The position numbers and the translations under genes are program-made. This document shows, one piece after another, positions 3,213 to 61,958 of a stretch of 64,000 bases of DNA. The notes below the pieces were generated by a model that saw only the letters and a program-made list of their open reading frames with translations, was not told where the DNA came from and did not search any database. The stretch's first letter is position 1; each line of letters opens with the position of its first letter. This stretch comes from a virus (Duplodnaviria; Heunggongvirae; Uroviricota; Caudoviricetes): IMG/VR virus record IMGVR_UViG_3300045988_162656; one strand, given 5' to 3'.

Positions 3213-4898
3213 TCATTTAACGCGTTTGAAAACGTATACGCTGACTGTGATCCCTGTGTCTTCAAACTCGTTGGTAAACGACTTCCCTCTGGCATAAACG
3301 TAATTATCCATCGTCATCCAGTCCAGTATTGGCGCAGTGCCCGGCAATACTGCTACAAGACGCCCGCCGACTTTCAGATGCCCCAGCGCAGCCAGCGTGT
3401 GCTCTCTATGACGACCAAGCGAGTACGGCGGGTTCATAACGATTTTGTCGAACTGATAACCTGCGTTGTCCTCAGACCACTTTATGAAGTCGCAGCAAAT
3501 CGTGTTCGTATACCCTTTTCCACGCAGGATATCAGCGAAGAGAGGTGCGATTTCTATGCAGGTAACATCTTCCAGATCGGCGTTAATATAGGCCAGAAGA
3601 TCCCCACGTCCGGCTTGAGGCTCCAACAGCTTCTCACCAGGCTTCAATTCAGTGGCTCTGGCAACGTACTCAGCAATCAAGCGTGGGGTAGGGTAGAACT
3701 GGTGTGATTTTGTATCCGGTATTAAACCGGTAGCCACAATCGTATTTAGCGTATGGCCGATCTCATACGGGAACTGCCAGTGCTTTTTCTCCTGCACGCC
3801 GCCAATGAAGCTCAGTGTGCGCTCAAGCTCTTCCACCTGCGACTTCTGGAGAGCTGAATCAGAGAAGTACCATACGCCTTTGTCTTTGCTCAATCGCCCG
3901 TCACGAAGCGCAGTGCGAACCGGCACGGAGATCGTCTTCTGGATTAACCCGAACTGCTTTGGTGCCCGTGTTTTTGGCGCAGTTCGGCATGGCGCGGGGA
4001 TTGCAGCAGGCATACTGTAAGCCAGCACCTCATTCAACTTCCAGGCCACGTCAGGATGTATTTCAAAGTGAACGTTGCCGTTCTTGAACATCTTCACGCG
4101 CATCAGATTTCCATCGACGTTCATCCAGTCACCGGTCTGGCAGTCGTTTGCCCGATACGCAGCTGATAGCACCTCAGCAGTGCGGTTGATGGTAATAAAT
4201 TCTTTGTGCGCGAAGAAATGAAGCAAGACACGCAGATCGTCGATGTAGTCCTCTTTGCGATAGTTCACGCTAACGCTGTCACGCCAGAAATCAGAAATGC
4301 AGTCAGCGATTATCAGACGCTCGCTGAAACCGTTTGTCTTATTTGTCTTGTGCGCAGGACTCAGCGCCTTAAACAAGCCATACACGCGCTCAGAGAGATA
4401 TTTGTGCCTGTCATTCAGCAAATTAAGCATCGTTGGTATGACCGTTTCTGCTTTGAACTCCGGTACACCAACGAACTCTTTAACCTTCATCTGATAGCCG
4501 GTTCTGTCAGTTTTGATGACTTCCTGCTTGCCCTCGATAAATAGCTCACGCCACTCGTCGCGACGGGAAGCTGGCATGATCAGCAGAACGTTAGTCATAT
4601 CCGTAACCTTCCTCCAGTACTCGGCCCAAATATTCTGTTTCACCCATTCCAGATCGACGTTATCCAGCCAGACTCGATTCAAACGTGAGCGATCTTCATC
4701 TGGTCGGTGGTTTAGTCGAAGCAGGCGATTAATCATGTTGTGGCGTTCATCGCCATAAACGAAGTCGTGTACCTGATACATGAAGGAGATCTCTTTCTCG
4801 CACTCGGCCACAATTTCGTGGATGACGTTCATTTCCTGTCGATAGTCGATAGCAGTGTTTGAGCTGGCATCGCCCATGATGGAAAGGGCTGTATTCAT
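3213..4898 (-). CDS. putative N6-adenine DNA methyltransferase with large N-terminal domain of unknown function
   Basis: C-terminal third carries LEPQAGRGDL (motif I-like) followed by NPPY (motif IV), the order seen in N6-adenine MTases; N-terminal ~350 aa unrecognised. Confidence 0.6.
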   Translation of the reverse strand: MNTALSIMGDASSNTAIDYRQEMNVIHEIVAECEKEISFMYQVHDFVYGDERHNMINRLLRLNHRPDEDRSRLNRVWLDNVDLEWVKQNIWAEYWRKVTDMTNVLLIMPASRRDEWRELFIEGKQEVIKTDRTGYQMKVKEFVGVPEFKAETVIPTMLNLLNDRHKYLSERVYGLFKALSPAHKTNKTNGFSERLIIADCISDFWRDSVSVNYRKEDYIDDLRVLLHFFAHKEFITINRTAEVLSAAYRANDCQTGDWMNVDGNLMRVKMFKNGNVHFEIHPDVAWKLNEVLAYSMPAAIPAPCRTAPKTRAPKQFGLIQKTISVPVRTALRDGRLSKDKGVWYFSDSALQKSQVEELERTLSFIGGVQEKKHWQFPYEIGHTLNTIVATGLIPDTKSHQFYPTPRLIAEYVARATELKPGEKLLEPQAGRGDLLAYINADLEDVTCIEIAPLFADILRGKGYTNTICCDFIKWSEDNAGYQFDKIVMNPPYSLGRHREHTLAALGHLKVGGRLVAVLPGTAPILDWMTMDNYVYARGKSFTNEFEDTGITVSVYVFKRVK

Positions 4899-8181: not shown

Positions 8182-8775
8182 TTACTGTTTGTTATAAACA
8201 AAACCAATATCTTTCTTGTGAGGCATATCTGCTGCTGAAAAAGCTGCGATCTTCGCGAGTCGATCACATATTTCATTTTCACGATGCCCGGCGTGACCTT
8301 TAACCCACTTCCAGCGAACATTATGTCGACTTGCGGCCTCATCCAGACGCTTCCACAGATCAACATTCTTTACCGGTTTTTTGTCAGAAGTCATCCATCC
8401 ATTGCGTTTCCACCATTTCATCCACTGTGTCATGCCGTTTTTCAGATACTGGCTATCAGAGTGCAAAATAACGTTGCATGGATATTTCAAACGCTCCAGC
8501 CCGATAAGTGCCCCCATCATCTCCATGCGGTTATTGGTGGTGCTATGAAAACCATCTGAGAACTCGCGTTCCTCGCCACGATACTGGAGAACGATACCGT
8601 AACCGCCCGGGCCACCCGGATTTTTAAGGCAAGAGCCATCACTAAAGATTTTCACGGTTTTAAGCTGGGGATTGAACTCTACGACAGGCGTTGTGGGATT
8701 GGTGCGGGGAGAATTTTTGTTTTTGTCTTTTTTGCGAGTTTTTGCTTGCGGTCGGGCTGGTGTCTTCGTTGTCAT
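8182..8775 (-). CDS. rnhA: ribonuclease H
   Basis: RNase HI-like blocks (IFSDGSC...[40 protein letters not shown]); start set at MTTKT with SD GGAG; ORF track 8182..8859 trimmed. Confidence 0.85.
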
Positions 8776-9356
8776 ATAAACTCCTGAATCAAGCGCCGCG
8801 CCGATTTTTCCTCGCGCGTGCGCACACGCGTGCGTGTTAATAATTATTAAAATAAACAAATTACTTCCCAGAACAGGTTTTTATAAACCTGAACTGAACG
8901 AACGAAGTGAGTGAAGTTCACCTCGAACGAAGTGAGAGGTTGTCTTTTCAGGTAATACTCTCCCAGGGAGGTGAGTATAAAATTCCTCACCAACCTGGTC
9001 GTTTCATAACCTGAAAAGCTATGGTCTAAGTCTACTGCCAGCTTAGACTTGGGAAGTTATGGATGACAGCACCCCAGAACCGAGATCTTCCCACACTTTA
9101 TGAAGGGGAGTACTGGATTCAACCTCTCGAAACACCCCAGACTCGACAATCATAAAGTGACCCTTGTCTCCGCTCACTTTGGTTCCCCCTTCCCCGACAC
9201 CTAAACGGCACCGGTTCTACGCTGGTAGTGAGCTTTTTTAAACCTGACGCCAGTGACGCTTACCCCCACCCATCAGGTCGAGTCTCCAGTCTACGACTGG
9301 AAACTATCAGATCTTAGCACTTACAATTCATCTTATGAATAGTTTGTACTTATCTA

Positions 9357-9587
9357 TCATTTCGATTGATTATTTTCTCGACCATGTAGTTGAACATTCA
9401 AGGCAAACACCTCGTTGATCAACTCACCTAAAAGCTGTTCAACAAGTTCGCGATGCTCCCCAAGATGCAAGCACTTAATTGCCCACTCGTACAAGTTGAA
9501 AGCCTGCTCACGATCTTTCATCATTTCACGAGCCTGGGCCAGAAAATCGCTGTCTACGAGCGCAACGACATTAGTCGGGTATGACAT
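9357..9587 (-). CDS. hypothetical protein
   Basis: ORF track 9357..9611 trimmed to ATG preceded by TAAGGAAACCAAC. Confidence 0.45.
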   Translation of the reverse strand: MSYPTNVVALVDSDFLAQAREMMKDREQAFNLYEWAIKCLHLGEHRELVEQLLGELINEVFALNVQLHGRENNQSK

Positions 9588-9774
9588 GTTGGTTTCCTTA
9601 AAGTGGTTCATAAAATCGATTTTAAAGCGTCTGGGAAGGGGGTCTAGTGGATTCTGTAGTGATGTTCAGGTCTGGAGTCTCTGATACAAAACAGCCTGCT
9701 TCCGTATATTAATAATTAATATGTAGTTATTTATATATATACAGAAGCAGGCTAATTACAGACGCCAGAACAAA

Positions 9775-10368
9775 CTAAGCAGCCTTCTTTGATGGTCTTT
9801 TTTTCCTGATCACATTCGCAGGATCATACCCTCCCAGACTTTTCATGACGTCCAAAGGGATCTTGCTTATAGAGTGCCCAGCGTCCTGACAGAATCCTCG
9901 AAAAACAACGAGCATACTGCCACCGGGGTTGATGTTTACTTCTACCTGACCCAAATTGACGTCAGGCTCGACAAACGCTACGCGGCCACCAGACAGAATA
10001 ATCGTCTCATTCGCATACTCTGTTGCACGCTCATACCACTTTGTATCGAGGGATTGAGGAATTAGCATCACTGTAGTAACTCCGCGAGCCTGCTCACGTA
10101 TAGCAGCATCAATCCAGGGGGAGATTTTGGAGTAGGGTGGATTGAGGAAGGCAATTGTACCTGGCTGTCCCCATTCAGATTTCAAAGCATCACGCTCAAT
10201 GCCTATGAAATTAGGCAGCTTTGCGTTGTCCTTGTTGCAGGCAACGTCAACATCAAATGTCACTCCAAGATAACGTTGAATGGCAGAAAACAGCCAATCA
10301 GGTGTTCTCCAGAGGTCACGAAGAGAGTTGTCGCGCTTTCGCTGTTTGATTTTTTCGGCTGCAATCAT
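9775..10368 (-). CDS. phage-type DNA N6-adenine methyltransferase (Dam-like)
   Basis: WRTPDWLF motif and FLNPPYS catalytic motif. Confidence 0.75.
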   Translation of the reverse strand: MIAAEKIKQRKRDNSLRDLWRTPDWLFSAIQRYLGVTFDVDVACNKDNAKLPNFIGIERDALKSEWGQPGTIAFLNPPYSKISPWIDAAIREQARGVTTVMLIPQSLDTKWYERATEYANETIILSGGRVAFVEPDVNLGQVEVNINPGGSMLVVFRGFCQDAGHSISKIPLDVMKSLGGYDPANVIRKKRPSKKAA

Positions 10369-48110: not shown

Positions 48111-48186
48111 TGGTGCCGGTTAGCGGACTCGAACCGCTGACATCCTGCTTACAAGGCAGGCGCTCTACCAACTGAGCTAAACCGGC
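48111..48186 (-). tRNA. tRNA-Thr (anticodon UGU)
   Basis: Hand-folded cloverleaf: acceptor GCCGGTT/AACCGGC, D-arm GCTC-AGTTGGTA-GAGC, anticodon loop CTTGTAA, T-loop TTCGAGT, CCA. Confidence 0.85.
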
Positions 48187-48282: not shown

Positions 48283-48357
48283 TGGCGATGGTGGGTGGAT
48301 TCGAACCACCGACCAGTTGGTTAACAGCCAACTGCTCTACCGCTGAGCTACACCATC
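48283..48357 (-). tRNA. tRNA-Asn (anticodon GUU)
   Basis: Acceptor GATGGTG/CACCATC, D-arm GCTC-AGCGGTA-GAGC, anticodon arm GTTGG-CTGTTAA-CCAAC, T-loop TTCGAAT, CCA. Confidence 0.85.
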
Positions 48358-61376: not shown

Positions 61377-61958
61377 TTACTCTGCTGGTATTGTTGGCCA
61401 CTCAATATCAGGTGCAGTTGATGTATCAACACGGTTCAGCAACACCCGATACTTTTTCCAGGCTTCCAGCAATGAGGTTTCTTCCTCCGTTGCAATTTCC
61501 AGATCTGCAGCATCCTGAAGCGGCGCAATATGCTCACTGGCTACCTGCATCAGGTTGTTTTTTGTTTCTTCCGCCTCCCGGATCCGGAACAGTTTTTCTG
61601 CTTCCGTATCCTTCACCCAGGCTGTGCCGTTCCACTTCTGAAACTCCCCTTCCGGCGATAACCAGGTAACATTTTCCGGTAACGGACCGAGTTCAGAAAT
61701 AAATAACTCGTCCCCTGACGCTACGTCATAAACCGTTTTACCCCGATGGTCTTCAACGAGATGCCACGATGCCTCATCACTGTTGAAAACAGCCACAAAG
61801 CCAGCCGGAATATCTGGCGGTGCAATATCGGTACTGTTTGCTGGCAGACCTGTATGAGGCGGAATATATGCGTCACCTTCACCAATAAATTCATTAGTTC
61901 CGGCCAGCAGATTATAAATTTTTATGGTCCGTGGTTGTTCACTCATTCTGAATGCCAT
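61377..61958 (-). CDS. tfa: tail fibre assembly protein (lambda Tfa-like)
   Basis: N-terminus [20 protein letters not shown] and C-terminal [21 protein letters not shown] match my recollection of lambda-family Tfa proteins. Confidence 0.85.

Follow-up and report, generated by a model that had tools for sequence, protein, structure and literature searches.

A conserved structured RNA gene, probably non-coding, upstream of RNase HI in SSU5-type phage-plasmids

A segment of about 455 nucleotides (nt) in the tailed-phage sequence IMGVR_UViG_3300045988_162656 (IMG/VR) is very probably an expressed, structured non-coding RNA (ncRNA) gene, read from the minus strand between positions 9304 and 8849. 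We analysed one stretch of this record, 64,000 nt long and hereafter called the window. The 641 bp around the region are 100% identical to plasmid p09EL50 of Escherichia coli O104:H4 (NC_018651) and to Shigella sonnei plasmids, and 88-98% identical to the phages SSU5, Cyrano, PhiR41_1 and SSU5-like phages of Klebsiella. The window is therefore an SSU5-type phage-plasmid. A first-pass annotation, made from the letters alone, had proposed a candidate ncRNA or cis-acting site in the gap without a credible gene that lies at 9356-8860, between a 76-aa open reading frame (ORF) and the RNase HI gene. Conservation, compensatory and wobble changes and a peak of RNA sequencing (RNA-seq) reads in the lysogen now back the first of these proposals. 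The analysis also refines the limits: the predicted RNA extends from about 9304 to 8849 on the minus strand, with a core at 9282-8861 and a putative promoter of its own. It belongs to no known family, and we regard it as a new class of RNA.

To compare the region among relatives, we collected 71 SSU5-type loci from IMG/VR through their RNase H protein and aligned 58 distinct versions of the minus strand from 10400 to 8150. Over this 2.25-kb stretch the RNA is the best-conserved segment. Between 9250 and 8901 the majority identity per 50 nt is 0.93-0.999, versus 0.72-0.90 in the flanking coding DNA, and 32-48 of every 50 columns are invariant, versus 5-35 in the flanks. The core has abrupt edges, as sequence upstream of 9283 and downstream of 8861 is highly variable, and BLAST matches from other clades begin and end exactly at 9282 and 8860/8861. 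Non-coding DNA whose conservation exceeds that of the adjacent genes, and which is so sharply delimited, is under direct selection at the nucleotide level.

The predicted transcript folds more stably than shuffled sequence, with a minimum free energy (MFE) of -170.5 kcal/mol and a z-score of -5.3 (-5.5 for the minus strand of the region and -4.6 for the plus strand). RNAalifold, run on 50 distinct sequences of the minus strand from 9310 to 8840 (alignment A1), gave a consensus of 128 pairs in 17 helices, in which 99.6% of 6,396 alignment cells are paired. Changes on both sides of a pair were found in 8 pairs and 67 cells; column shuffles gave 17.6 +/- 3.3 cells and none of 500 reached the observed number. 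Since clade-defining changes create spurious covariation by themselves, the meaningful control is one in which the pairing partner is slid by 1-3 columns and phylogeny is preserved; it left two-sided changes in no more than 1-3 pairs and 1-5 cells. In another twenty pairs one side alone varies, each time via G-U. When 20 more distinct copies from gut metagenomes were added, they brought nine new substitutions, of which five fall in unpaired columns, three are C>U opposite G and one breaks a pair. The helices are thus kept in related genomes through compensatory and wobble changes, and this conservation of structure was one of two findings whose absence the first-pass annotation had named as speaking against an RNA. 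The elements of the fold are:

9241-9279, minus strand: helix 2, a 15-bp hairpin that includes GGGUGGGGG, with two-sided changes AU>GC, CG>UA and AU>GC
9172-9233, minus strand: helix 3 domain, with hairpin 4 (9214-9194) and the invariant G-rich loop GGGGAAGGGGGAACCAAAG inside it
8934-9170, minus strand: central multi-helix junction with helices 6-15, closed by 9170-9160 pairing with 8940-8934
9159-9094, 9093-9050, 9048-9024 and 9018-8944, minus strand: the four arms of the junction
8899-8936, minus strand: direct repeats CUCACUUCGUUCG (on the plus strand CGAACGAAGTGAG, at 8899-8911 and 8924-8936), all columns invariant
8867-8898, minus strand: hairpin 17, the last helix before the conserved UCUGGGAAGUAA, with pair 431-440 changed UA>GC in 8 sequences

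Within the helix 3 domain, pair 83-141 is UA in 29 sequences, UG in 7 and CG in 14, and helix 4 varies by wobble-compatible changes only. The compensatory changes of the central junction are located in arms 8 and 13. Two hairpins, 8929-8899 and 8898-8867, form the 3' part of the consensus, and the direct repeats overlap the first of them (hairpin 16, 8929-8918 with 8910-8899). Both repeats had already been seen in the first-pass annotation, as had three stem-loops that are present and correspond to helices 15, 13 and 11 of the consensus: GGTGAG 8971-8976 with CTCACC 8987-8992, CTAAGTCT 9026-9033 with AGACTTGG 9045-9052, and GGGAAG 9051-9056 with CTTCCC 9087-9092.

G-U pairs tell the strand. 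They make up 742 cells (about 12%), and 32 of the 128 pairs are G-U in some sequence. Read on the plus strand, the same pairs become A-C and the paired cells fall to 88%. As the G-U pairs fit the minus strand only, the folded molecule is the minus-strand transcript, of the same sense as the neighbouring genes. This asymmetry also bears on a reading of the region as a DNA-level cis site (an operator cluster, a packaging or replication site, or hairpins of single-stranded DNA) in which the RNA fold would be incidental. Direct repeats, dyads and an adjacent AT-rich segment are what such a site could contain, and its extreme invariance could reflect protein-binding DNA. However, the G-U cells would be mismatches on the other strand, compensatory changes keep the helices, and the repeats occur only twice, within a hairpin. 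Moreover, a discrete transcript peak covers the region and a conserved promoter points into it, as described below. We consider a DNA site very improbable.

That the region is transcribed in lysogens is supported by published RNA-seq data, the presence of a transcript being the second finding on which the first-pass annotation had made its proposal depend. Misson et al. 2023 (PMC9928086, Table 1), who used the LF82 reads of Demarre et al., found CYRAN_81, an annotated ORF of phage Cyrano, 12-fold above prophage background in lysogens of E. coli LF82, with the phage repressor at 10-fold. CYRAN_81 lies inside the core. The values in S1 Table of that paper (PMC9928086), given in duplicate as log2(FPKM+5), where FPKM stands for fragments per kilobase per million mapped reads, are:

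Lysogeny broth (LB), overnight: CYRAN_81 6.82 and 6.92; upstream ORF 3.36 and 3.13; RNase H 2.59 and 3.44
Culture, 1 h: CYRAN_81 9.34 and 9.02; upstream ORF 4.62 and 4.2; RNase H 3.87 and 3.83
Culture, 6 h: CYRAN_81 6.94 and 6.89; upstream ORF 4.1 and 4.07; RNase H 4.42 and 4.27
Macrophage, 1 h: CYRAN_81 8.97 and 8.23; upstream ORF 5.81 and 5.14; RNase H 4.7 and 4.01
Macrophage, 6 h: CYRAN_81 10.35 and 10.30; upstream ORF 5.22 and 5.01; RNase H 5.02 and 4.78

In all five conditions the CYRAN_81 region is expressed 11-40 times above both neighbours, forming a discrete peak, and it is highest inside macrophages. The copy number of the element is 5.5 per chromosome (PMC9928086). Such a profile is consistent with a unit that has a promoter and an end of its own and is active in the plasmid-prophage state. 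Another gene of the element, CYRAN_43, was by far its most highly expressed in the LF82 lysogens, at 723-fold above prophage background (PMC9928086). It encodes 184 aa without a Pfam match, adjoins the integrase and the repressor (4269-4823 in locus L285), and its equivalent is expected near 46-47.5 kb of the window.

The signal over CYRAN_81 could in principle belong to a small protein, encoded by this ORF or by another short ORF of the region. CYRAN_81, the only ORF of the region to have been annotated, is listed as a coding sequence in phage Cyrano and was reported as an expressed 'moron' (PMC9928086). The ORF is the following:

9177-9043, minus strand: 44-aa ORF with a GTG start, CYRAN_81 of phage Cyrano; spurious, not a gene

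Of 19 distinct variants, 6 have its reading frame interrupted by a frameshift or a stop; it is broken in loci L085, L114 and L152, in the whole Klebsiella clade and in the clade of L148 and L150. Variable sites have no codon periodicity, either in the ORF (11, 8 and 9 by codon position) or across the whole core (31, 35 and 30). No ORF of the region exceeds 48 aa, in agreement with its first description as ORF-free. In addition, CYRAN_40, another 'moron' of the same paper, is likewise a spurious ORF, in this case overlapping the three tRNA genes of the Cyrano record; at this place the window has two tRNA genes (48114-48186 and 48286-48357, minus strand). A small protein gene is thus extremely improbable, and both this and the DNA-site reading are largely excluded. 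The 'hypothetical protein' or 'moron' called over the RNA in some records is an artefact, of which annotators should be aware.

The sequence around the core contains the elements expected for a separate transcription unit:

9334-9339, minus strand: -35-like hexamer TTCATA, 17 nt upstream of the -10, proposed from the consensus
9311-9319, minus strand: extended -10, TGcTAAGAT, conserved
9304-8849, minus strand: predicted transcript of about 455 nt, with the start placed by promoter geometry and the end by the U-rich tract
9285-9301, minus strand: 5' hairpin UCCAGUC GUA GACUGGA, clade-variable in sequence, with the stem kept
8849-8860, minus strand: U-rich tract UUUGUUUAUUUU after the invariant core end UCUGGGAAGUAA, the likely termination region
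8813-8837: alternating pyrimidine-purine tract CGCGCGTGCGCACACGCGTGCGTGT of 25 nt, outside the RNA and before the ribosome-binding site of RNase H

In all 41 distinct upstream sequences, a -10 of the form TGnTA(A/T/C/G)(A/G)AT (e.g. TGnTAAGAT, TGATAAAAT) or TAGAAT stands out from an otherwise variable stretch and ends 26-29 nt before the core. At the -35 position other clades have, with the same spacing, TTTAAA, TTCAAA, TTTACG or TTTACT (TTnAnn). This looks like a sigma-70 promoter with an extended -10, and its geometry would place the transcript start near 9305-9304. A palindrome at 9339-9357, perfect in the SSU5 clade (GGTAAGTACTTACC), abuts the -35 and extends over the stop codon that ends the 76-aa ORF; it is a possible operator or weak terminator. 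The similar sequence GATAGGTAAGTGCTTATC is present in an unrelated phage locus of IMG/VR (L145).

Between start and core, the 5' hairpin occurs in 18 distinct versions with at least 7 unrelated stems, most of them of 5-9 bp and at the same place (two are shifted and two are weak). Such replacement of one stem by another amounts to strong covariation in its own right, and the hairpin is of a kind typical of 5' ends protected from RNase E. At the other end, a U-rich run follows the core in 6 of 7 clades, the tract ends some 75 nt short of the start codon of RNase H, and expression drops 12-40 fold from the RNA to RNase H. The alternating tract that follows keeps its alternation in all clades, with varying sequence and length, and could be Z-DNA-prone or a protein site. 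It contains the GC-rich dyad (8813-8830) that had been placed at the upstream edge of the structured region; the dyad is there, but downstream of the RNA and outside it.

The RNA is widespread in one family of elements. Among 72,556 plasmids of PLSDB, 687 contain it (Klebsiella 310, Escherichia 195, Enterobacter 88, Salmonella 49, Citrobacter 24, Cronobacter 10, Shigella 7), as do 12 phage records and 232 of 5,426 complete E. coli genomes (about 4%), where 232 of the 234 matching places are on plasmids. The Prokaryotic Genome Annotation Pipeline (PGAP) has no annotation over the RNA in any of the 30 E. coli matches listed. In every SSU5-type locus of IMG/VR with upstream sequence available, the RNA is directly upstream of RNase H, while it is absent from RNase H phages of a different backbone (L145/L146 and L154-162). 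In two of the latter, L145 and L146, the RNase H is 89% identical to residues 24-184 of that in the window and comes without the N-terminal extension described below and without the RNA. A search of genome contigs with the RNase H protein found chromosomal rnhA genes only, none with the RNA.

No distant homologue was found in IMG/VR, GenBank phages, complete E. coli genomes or JGI metagenomes. Blastn searches of phages, plasmids and E. coli genomes returned almost nothing below about 89% identity (2 of the 687 PLSDB records fall in the 60-80% band), and scanning metagenomes for a two-anchor pattern yielded 41 true matches, all close relatives, besides chance matches. With the 4,227 covariance models of Rfam 15 at gathering thresholds, the whole window matches IS009 and two tRNAs only, all elsewhere; a scan of 8700-9800 at E <= 10, which follows the covariance search suggested in the first-pass annotation, gave weak miRNA-like chance matches far below threshold, two of them within the RNA, and thus no known family. 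The IS009 match (RF02111) is full-length, at 61417-61615 on the minus strand (225 bits, E 4e-55). Full-text literature searches found no description of the RNA. The RNA has the general hallmarks of a structured ncRNA, namely compensatory and wobble changes that support its helices, an asymmetry between the strands, and transcription, although within few independent lineages.

Every gene around the region is on the minus strand. The first-pass annotation had placed the region between RNase H and a Dam-like methylase, and Pfam confirms both genes, with the 76-aa ORF also lying between the region and the methylase:

10368-9775, minus strand: Dam-like methylase (PF05869, E 5e-38)
9587-9357, minus strand: 76-aa ORF, phrog_5343, between the methylase and the region
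9356-8860: gap without a credible gene, between the 76-aa ORF and RNase HI
8775-8182, minus strand: RNase HI (PF00075, E 1e-44)

The phage RNase HI has an N-terminal extension of about 40 aa, rich in lysine, arginine and proline, which host RnhA does not have; the Pfam match covers residues 40-178 only. Two more features lie upstream of the 76-aa ORF on the minus strand. Directly after the methylase stop codon, an AT-rich inverted repeat (9693-9753, arms of 27 nt) and a conserved GCAGGCU-UUUU behind it resemble an intrinsic terminator that would serve the upstream operon. At 9615-9680, three CCAGA(C/A) repeats about 20 nt apart and a TAGAAT/TAAAAT -10, kept across clades, suggest a regulated promoter with operator repeats.

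As to function, our best overall explanation, a separate structured-RNA gene combined with regulation of the leader or immunity type, stands in our judgement evenly between right and wrong. The c4 RNA of P1, the CI RNA of P4 and the antirepressor-operon RNA of N15 are expressed in lysogens and lie in the leaders of lytic or antirepressor operons of phage-plasmids. The RNA described here is made in the plasmid-prophage state, while the surrounding early-lytic genes are silent, and the antirepressor gene (ant) of SSU5 lies four genes downstream of it. In its specific form, as a gate for downstream transcription, the model is tentative and we think it rather unlikely to be correct. It would work as follows. 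Transcription would be constitutive, from the only evident promoter facing the early-gene block of RNase H. In the lysogen it would halt at the RNA's own 3' end, so that stable folded RNA builds up and the downstream genes stay off. The switch would reside in the invariant ACUUCCCA (9057-9050), which may pair either with the internal UGGGAAG (9093-9087) or with the 3'-terminal GGGAAGU (8869-8863), and a phage or host factor that shifts this pairing would open or close read-through.

The model is suggested by a single difference between the MFE and centroid structures of the transcript, namely what ACUUCCC(A) at 9057-9050 pairs with: the MFE structure pairs it with GGGAAGU, which sits immediately before the U-tract, while the centroid and the RNAalifold consensus pair it with UGGGAAG. 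Two alternative pairings at this place suggest a leader-type switch, in which the fold decides between termination and reading into RNase H and beyond. Three CUCAC and three GUGAG/GUGAA elements, including the direct repeats and all invariant, permit further alternative pairings. A 21-nt complementarity to the leader of the 76-aa ORF (9642-9622) was dropped from consideration, as other clades do not keep it.

Several observations weigh against this explanation, in whole or in part. The family consists of only 6-8 clades with about ten independent compensatory events, and clade-defining substitutions give many spurious covarying column pairs in an all-against-all scan, which also made that search uninformative about pseudoknots. 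The transcript ends as proposed are taken from sequence, and the minus strand from the G-U asymmetry rather than from RNA-seq reads. The U-rich run is weak in the Klebsiella clade, and a simple terminator scan called no canonical intrinsic terminator at the 3' end. As for the gate, its switch elements are invariant and thus beyond test by covariation, the E. coli version of the element lacks ant, and blastn-short of the RNA against the window found no complementarity of at least 12 nt above chance. Finally, known immunity RNAs are 70-80 nt long, while this one has about 450 nt.

The main alternative is a free-standing, trans-acting RNA unrelated to its neighbours, such as the scaffold of a ribonucleoprotein (RNP), a sponge for proteins or RNAs, a ribozyme or an ornate RNA of the ROOL, GOLLD or OLE type, serving the plasmid-prophage state as a core factor. 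A multi-junction fold, near-invariant loops and a size like this are what one typically sees in RNP or ribozyme RNAs rather than in antisense regulators. The RNA has its own promoter, its expression peaks in the lysogen and is highest inside macrophages, no antisense target was found in the window, and the RNA is a core feature of all SSU5-type elements examined. On the other hand, no partner protein was identified, there is no match to the large-RNA families of Rfam, and chance would have to account for the strict synteny with RNase H. A CsrB-like sponge in particular was rejected, as the 456 nt contain 8 GGA motifs, mostly in stems and internal loops and one at the edge of a hairpin loop, where 10-20 or more would be expected. 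All in all, we regard a free-standing RNA as possible but doubtful.

A further alternative is that the RNA is the pre-primer of an R-loop origin, like RNA II of ColE1 or the origins of T4. A G-rich RNA would then stay on its template, the RNase H of the adjacent gene would cut it, and its 3' end would prime synthesis in the AT-rich, alternating pyrimidine-purine region. The layout is suitable: a promoter, a G-rich structured RNA of about 450 nt, an AT-rich spacer, a supercoil-sensitive alternating tract and the RNase HI gene. The RNA contains 124 G versus 92 C and ten runs of at least three G. Since repA lies outside the window, this would be a second origin, possibly a lytic one. But as the host supplies an RNase HI of its own, constitutive expression in the lysogen would set off a lytic origin. 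Opposite the 5' end there is no antisense control RNA or promoter, and Rfam has no RNAI- or RNAII-like match. The element already encodes a RepA replicon and a Pol III alpha-type replicase, and near-invariant loops and four junction arms exceed what R-loop formation needs. A search for G-quadruplex (G4) motifs in the RNA found none, which counts against an R-loop primer and led us to reject a G-quadruplex reading as such. We think an R-loop primer improbable.

Large RNAs with complex folds are rare, and new classes of them in Enterobacteriaceae are rarer; earlier ones (RNase P, tmRNA, 6S, CsrB, OLE and ROOL) each turned out to have an unusual mechanism. The RNA could be the first representative of a so far undescribed class of large structured RNAs, a lysogeny-expressed core component of the SSU5 family whose mode of action is unlike that of any known phage RNA. 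This is a serious possibility, although we lean somewhat against it. Under this reading it may be an RNA-only switch between plasmid and lytic states, a ribozyme or the scaffold of a novel RNP. Clinical E. coli, Klebsiella, Enterobacter, Salmonella (pHCM2 of S. Typhi) and Shigella commonly harbour SSU5-type phage-plasmids, some of which bear resistance genes. Little is understood of the way these elements decide between lytic growth and maintenance as a plasmid, and an RNA that is conserved, expressed in the lysogen and raised in macrophages is an obvious candidate regulator of this choice.

Compared with known systems, the RNA shares with ROOL, GOLLD, OLE, HEARO and raiA a length above 400 nt, many helices and junctions, very high conservation, carriage by temperate phages, and a function that cannot be deduced from the neighbouring genes. 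It differs from them in its hosts (Enterobacteriaceae, versus Firmicutes and other usual hosts), in not lying beside tRNA genes and in its limitation to a single phage-plasmid family, and cmscan found no match to their covariance models even at E <= 10. Like RNA II of ColE1 (with RNA I, RF00106), it is a structured, G-rich transcript of roughly 500 nt that ends by an AT-rich region, and it is linked to RNase H, here as suggested by gene adjacency alone. However, it lies away from the RepA replicon, is constitutive in a low-copy element and has no homology to RNA II; nor is there an RNA I-like gene, as no plus-strand promoter/terminator pair was found within 9180-9305 and no RNAI match in Rfam. 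With the CsrB/RsmZ sponges and 6S RNA it has in common that it is an abundant structured ncRNA expressed outside lytic growth, while it lacks the single long hairpin with a central bubble, and the Rfam match, that would make it a 6S RNA.

A comparison may also be made with the C4/CI RNAs (P1/P7 c4, P4 CI and N15; RF01695). This RNA is six times longer with a multi-junction fold, Rfam scans give no C4 match in sequence or structure, no complementary target boxes were found in the window, ant is missing in the E. coli lineage, and processing by RNase P is not evident. Like them it is encoded by a phage-plasmid and expressed in the lysogen from a constitutive-looking promoter heading on the same strand into a lytic/antirepressor block, with SSU5 ant four genes downstream, and it accumulates with the downstream genes silent.

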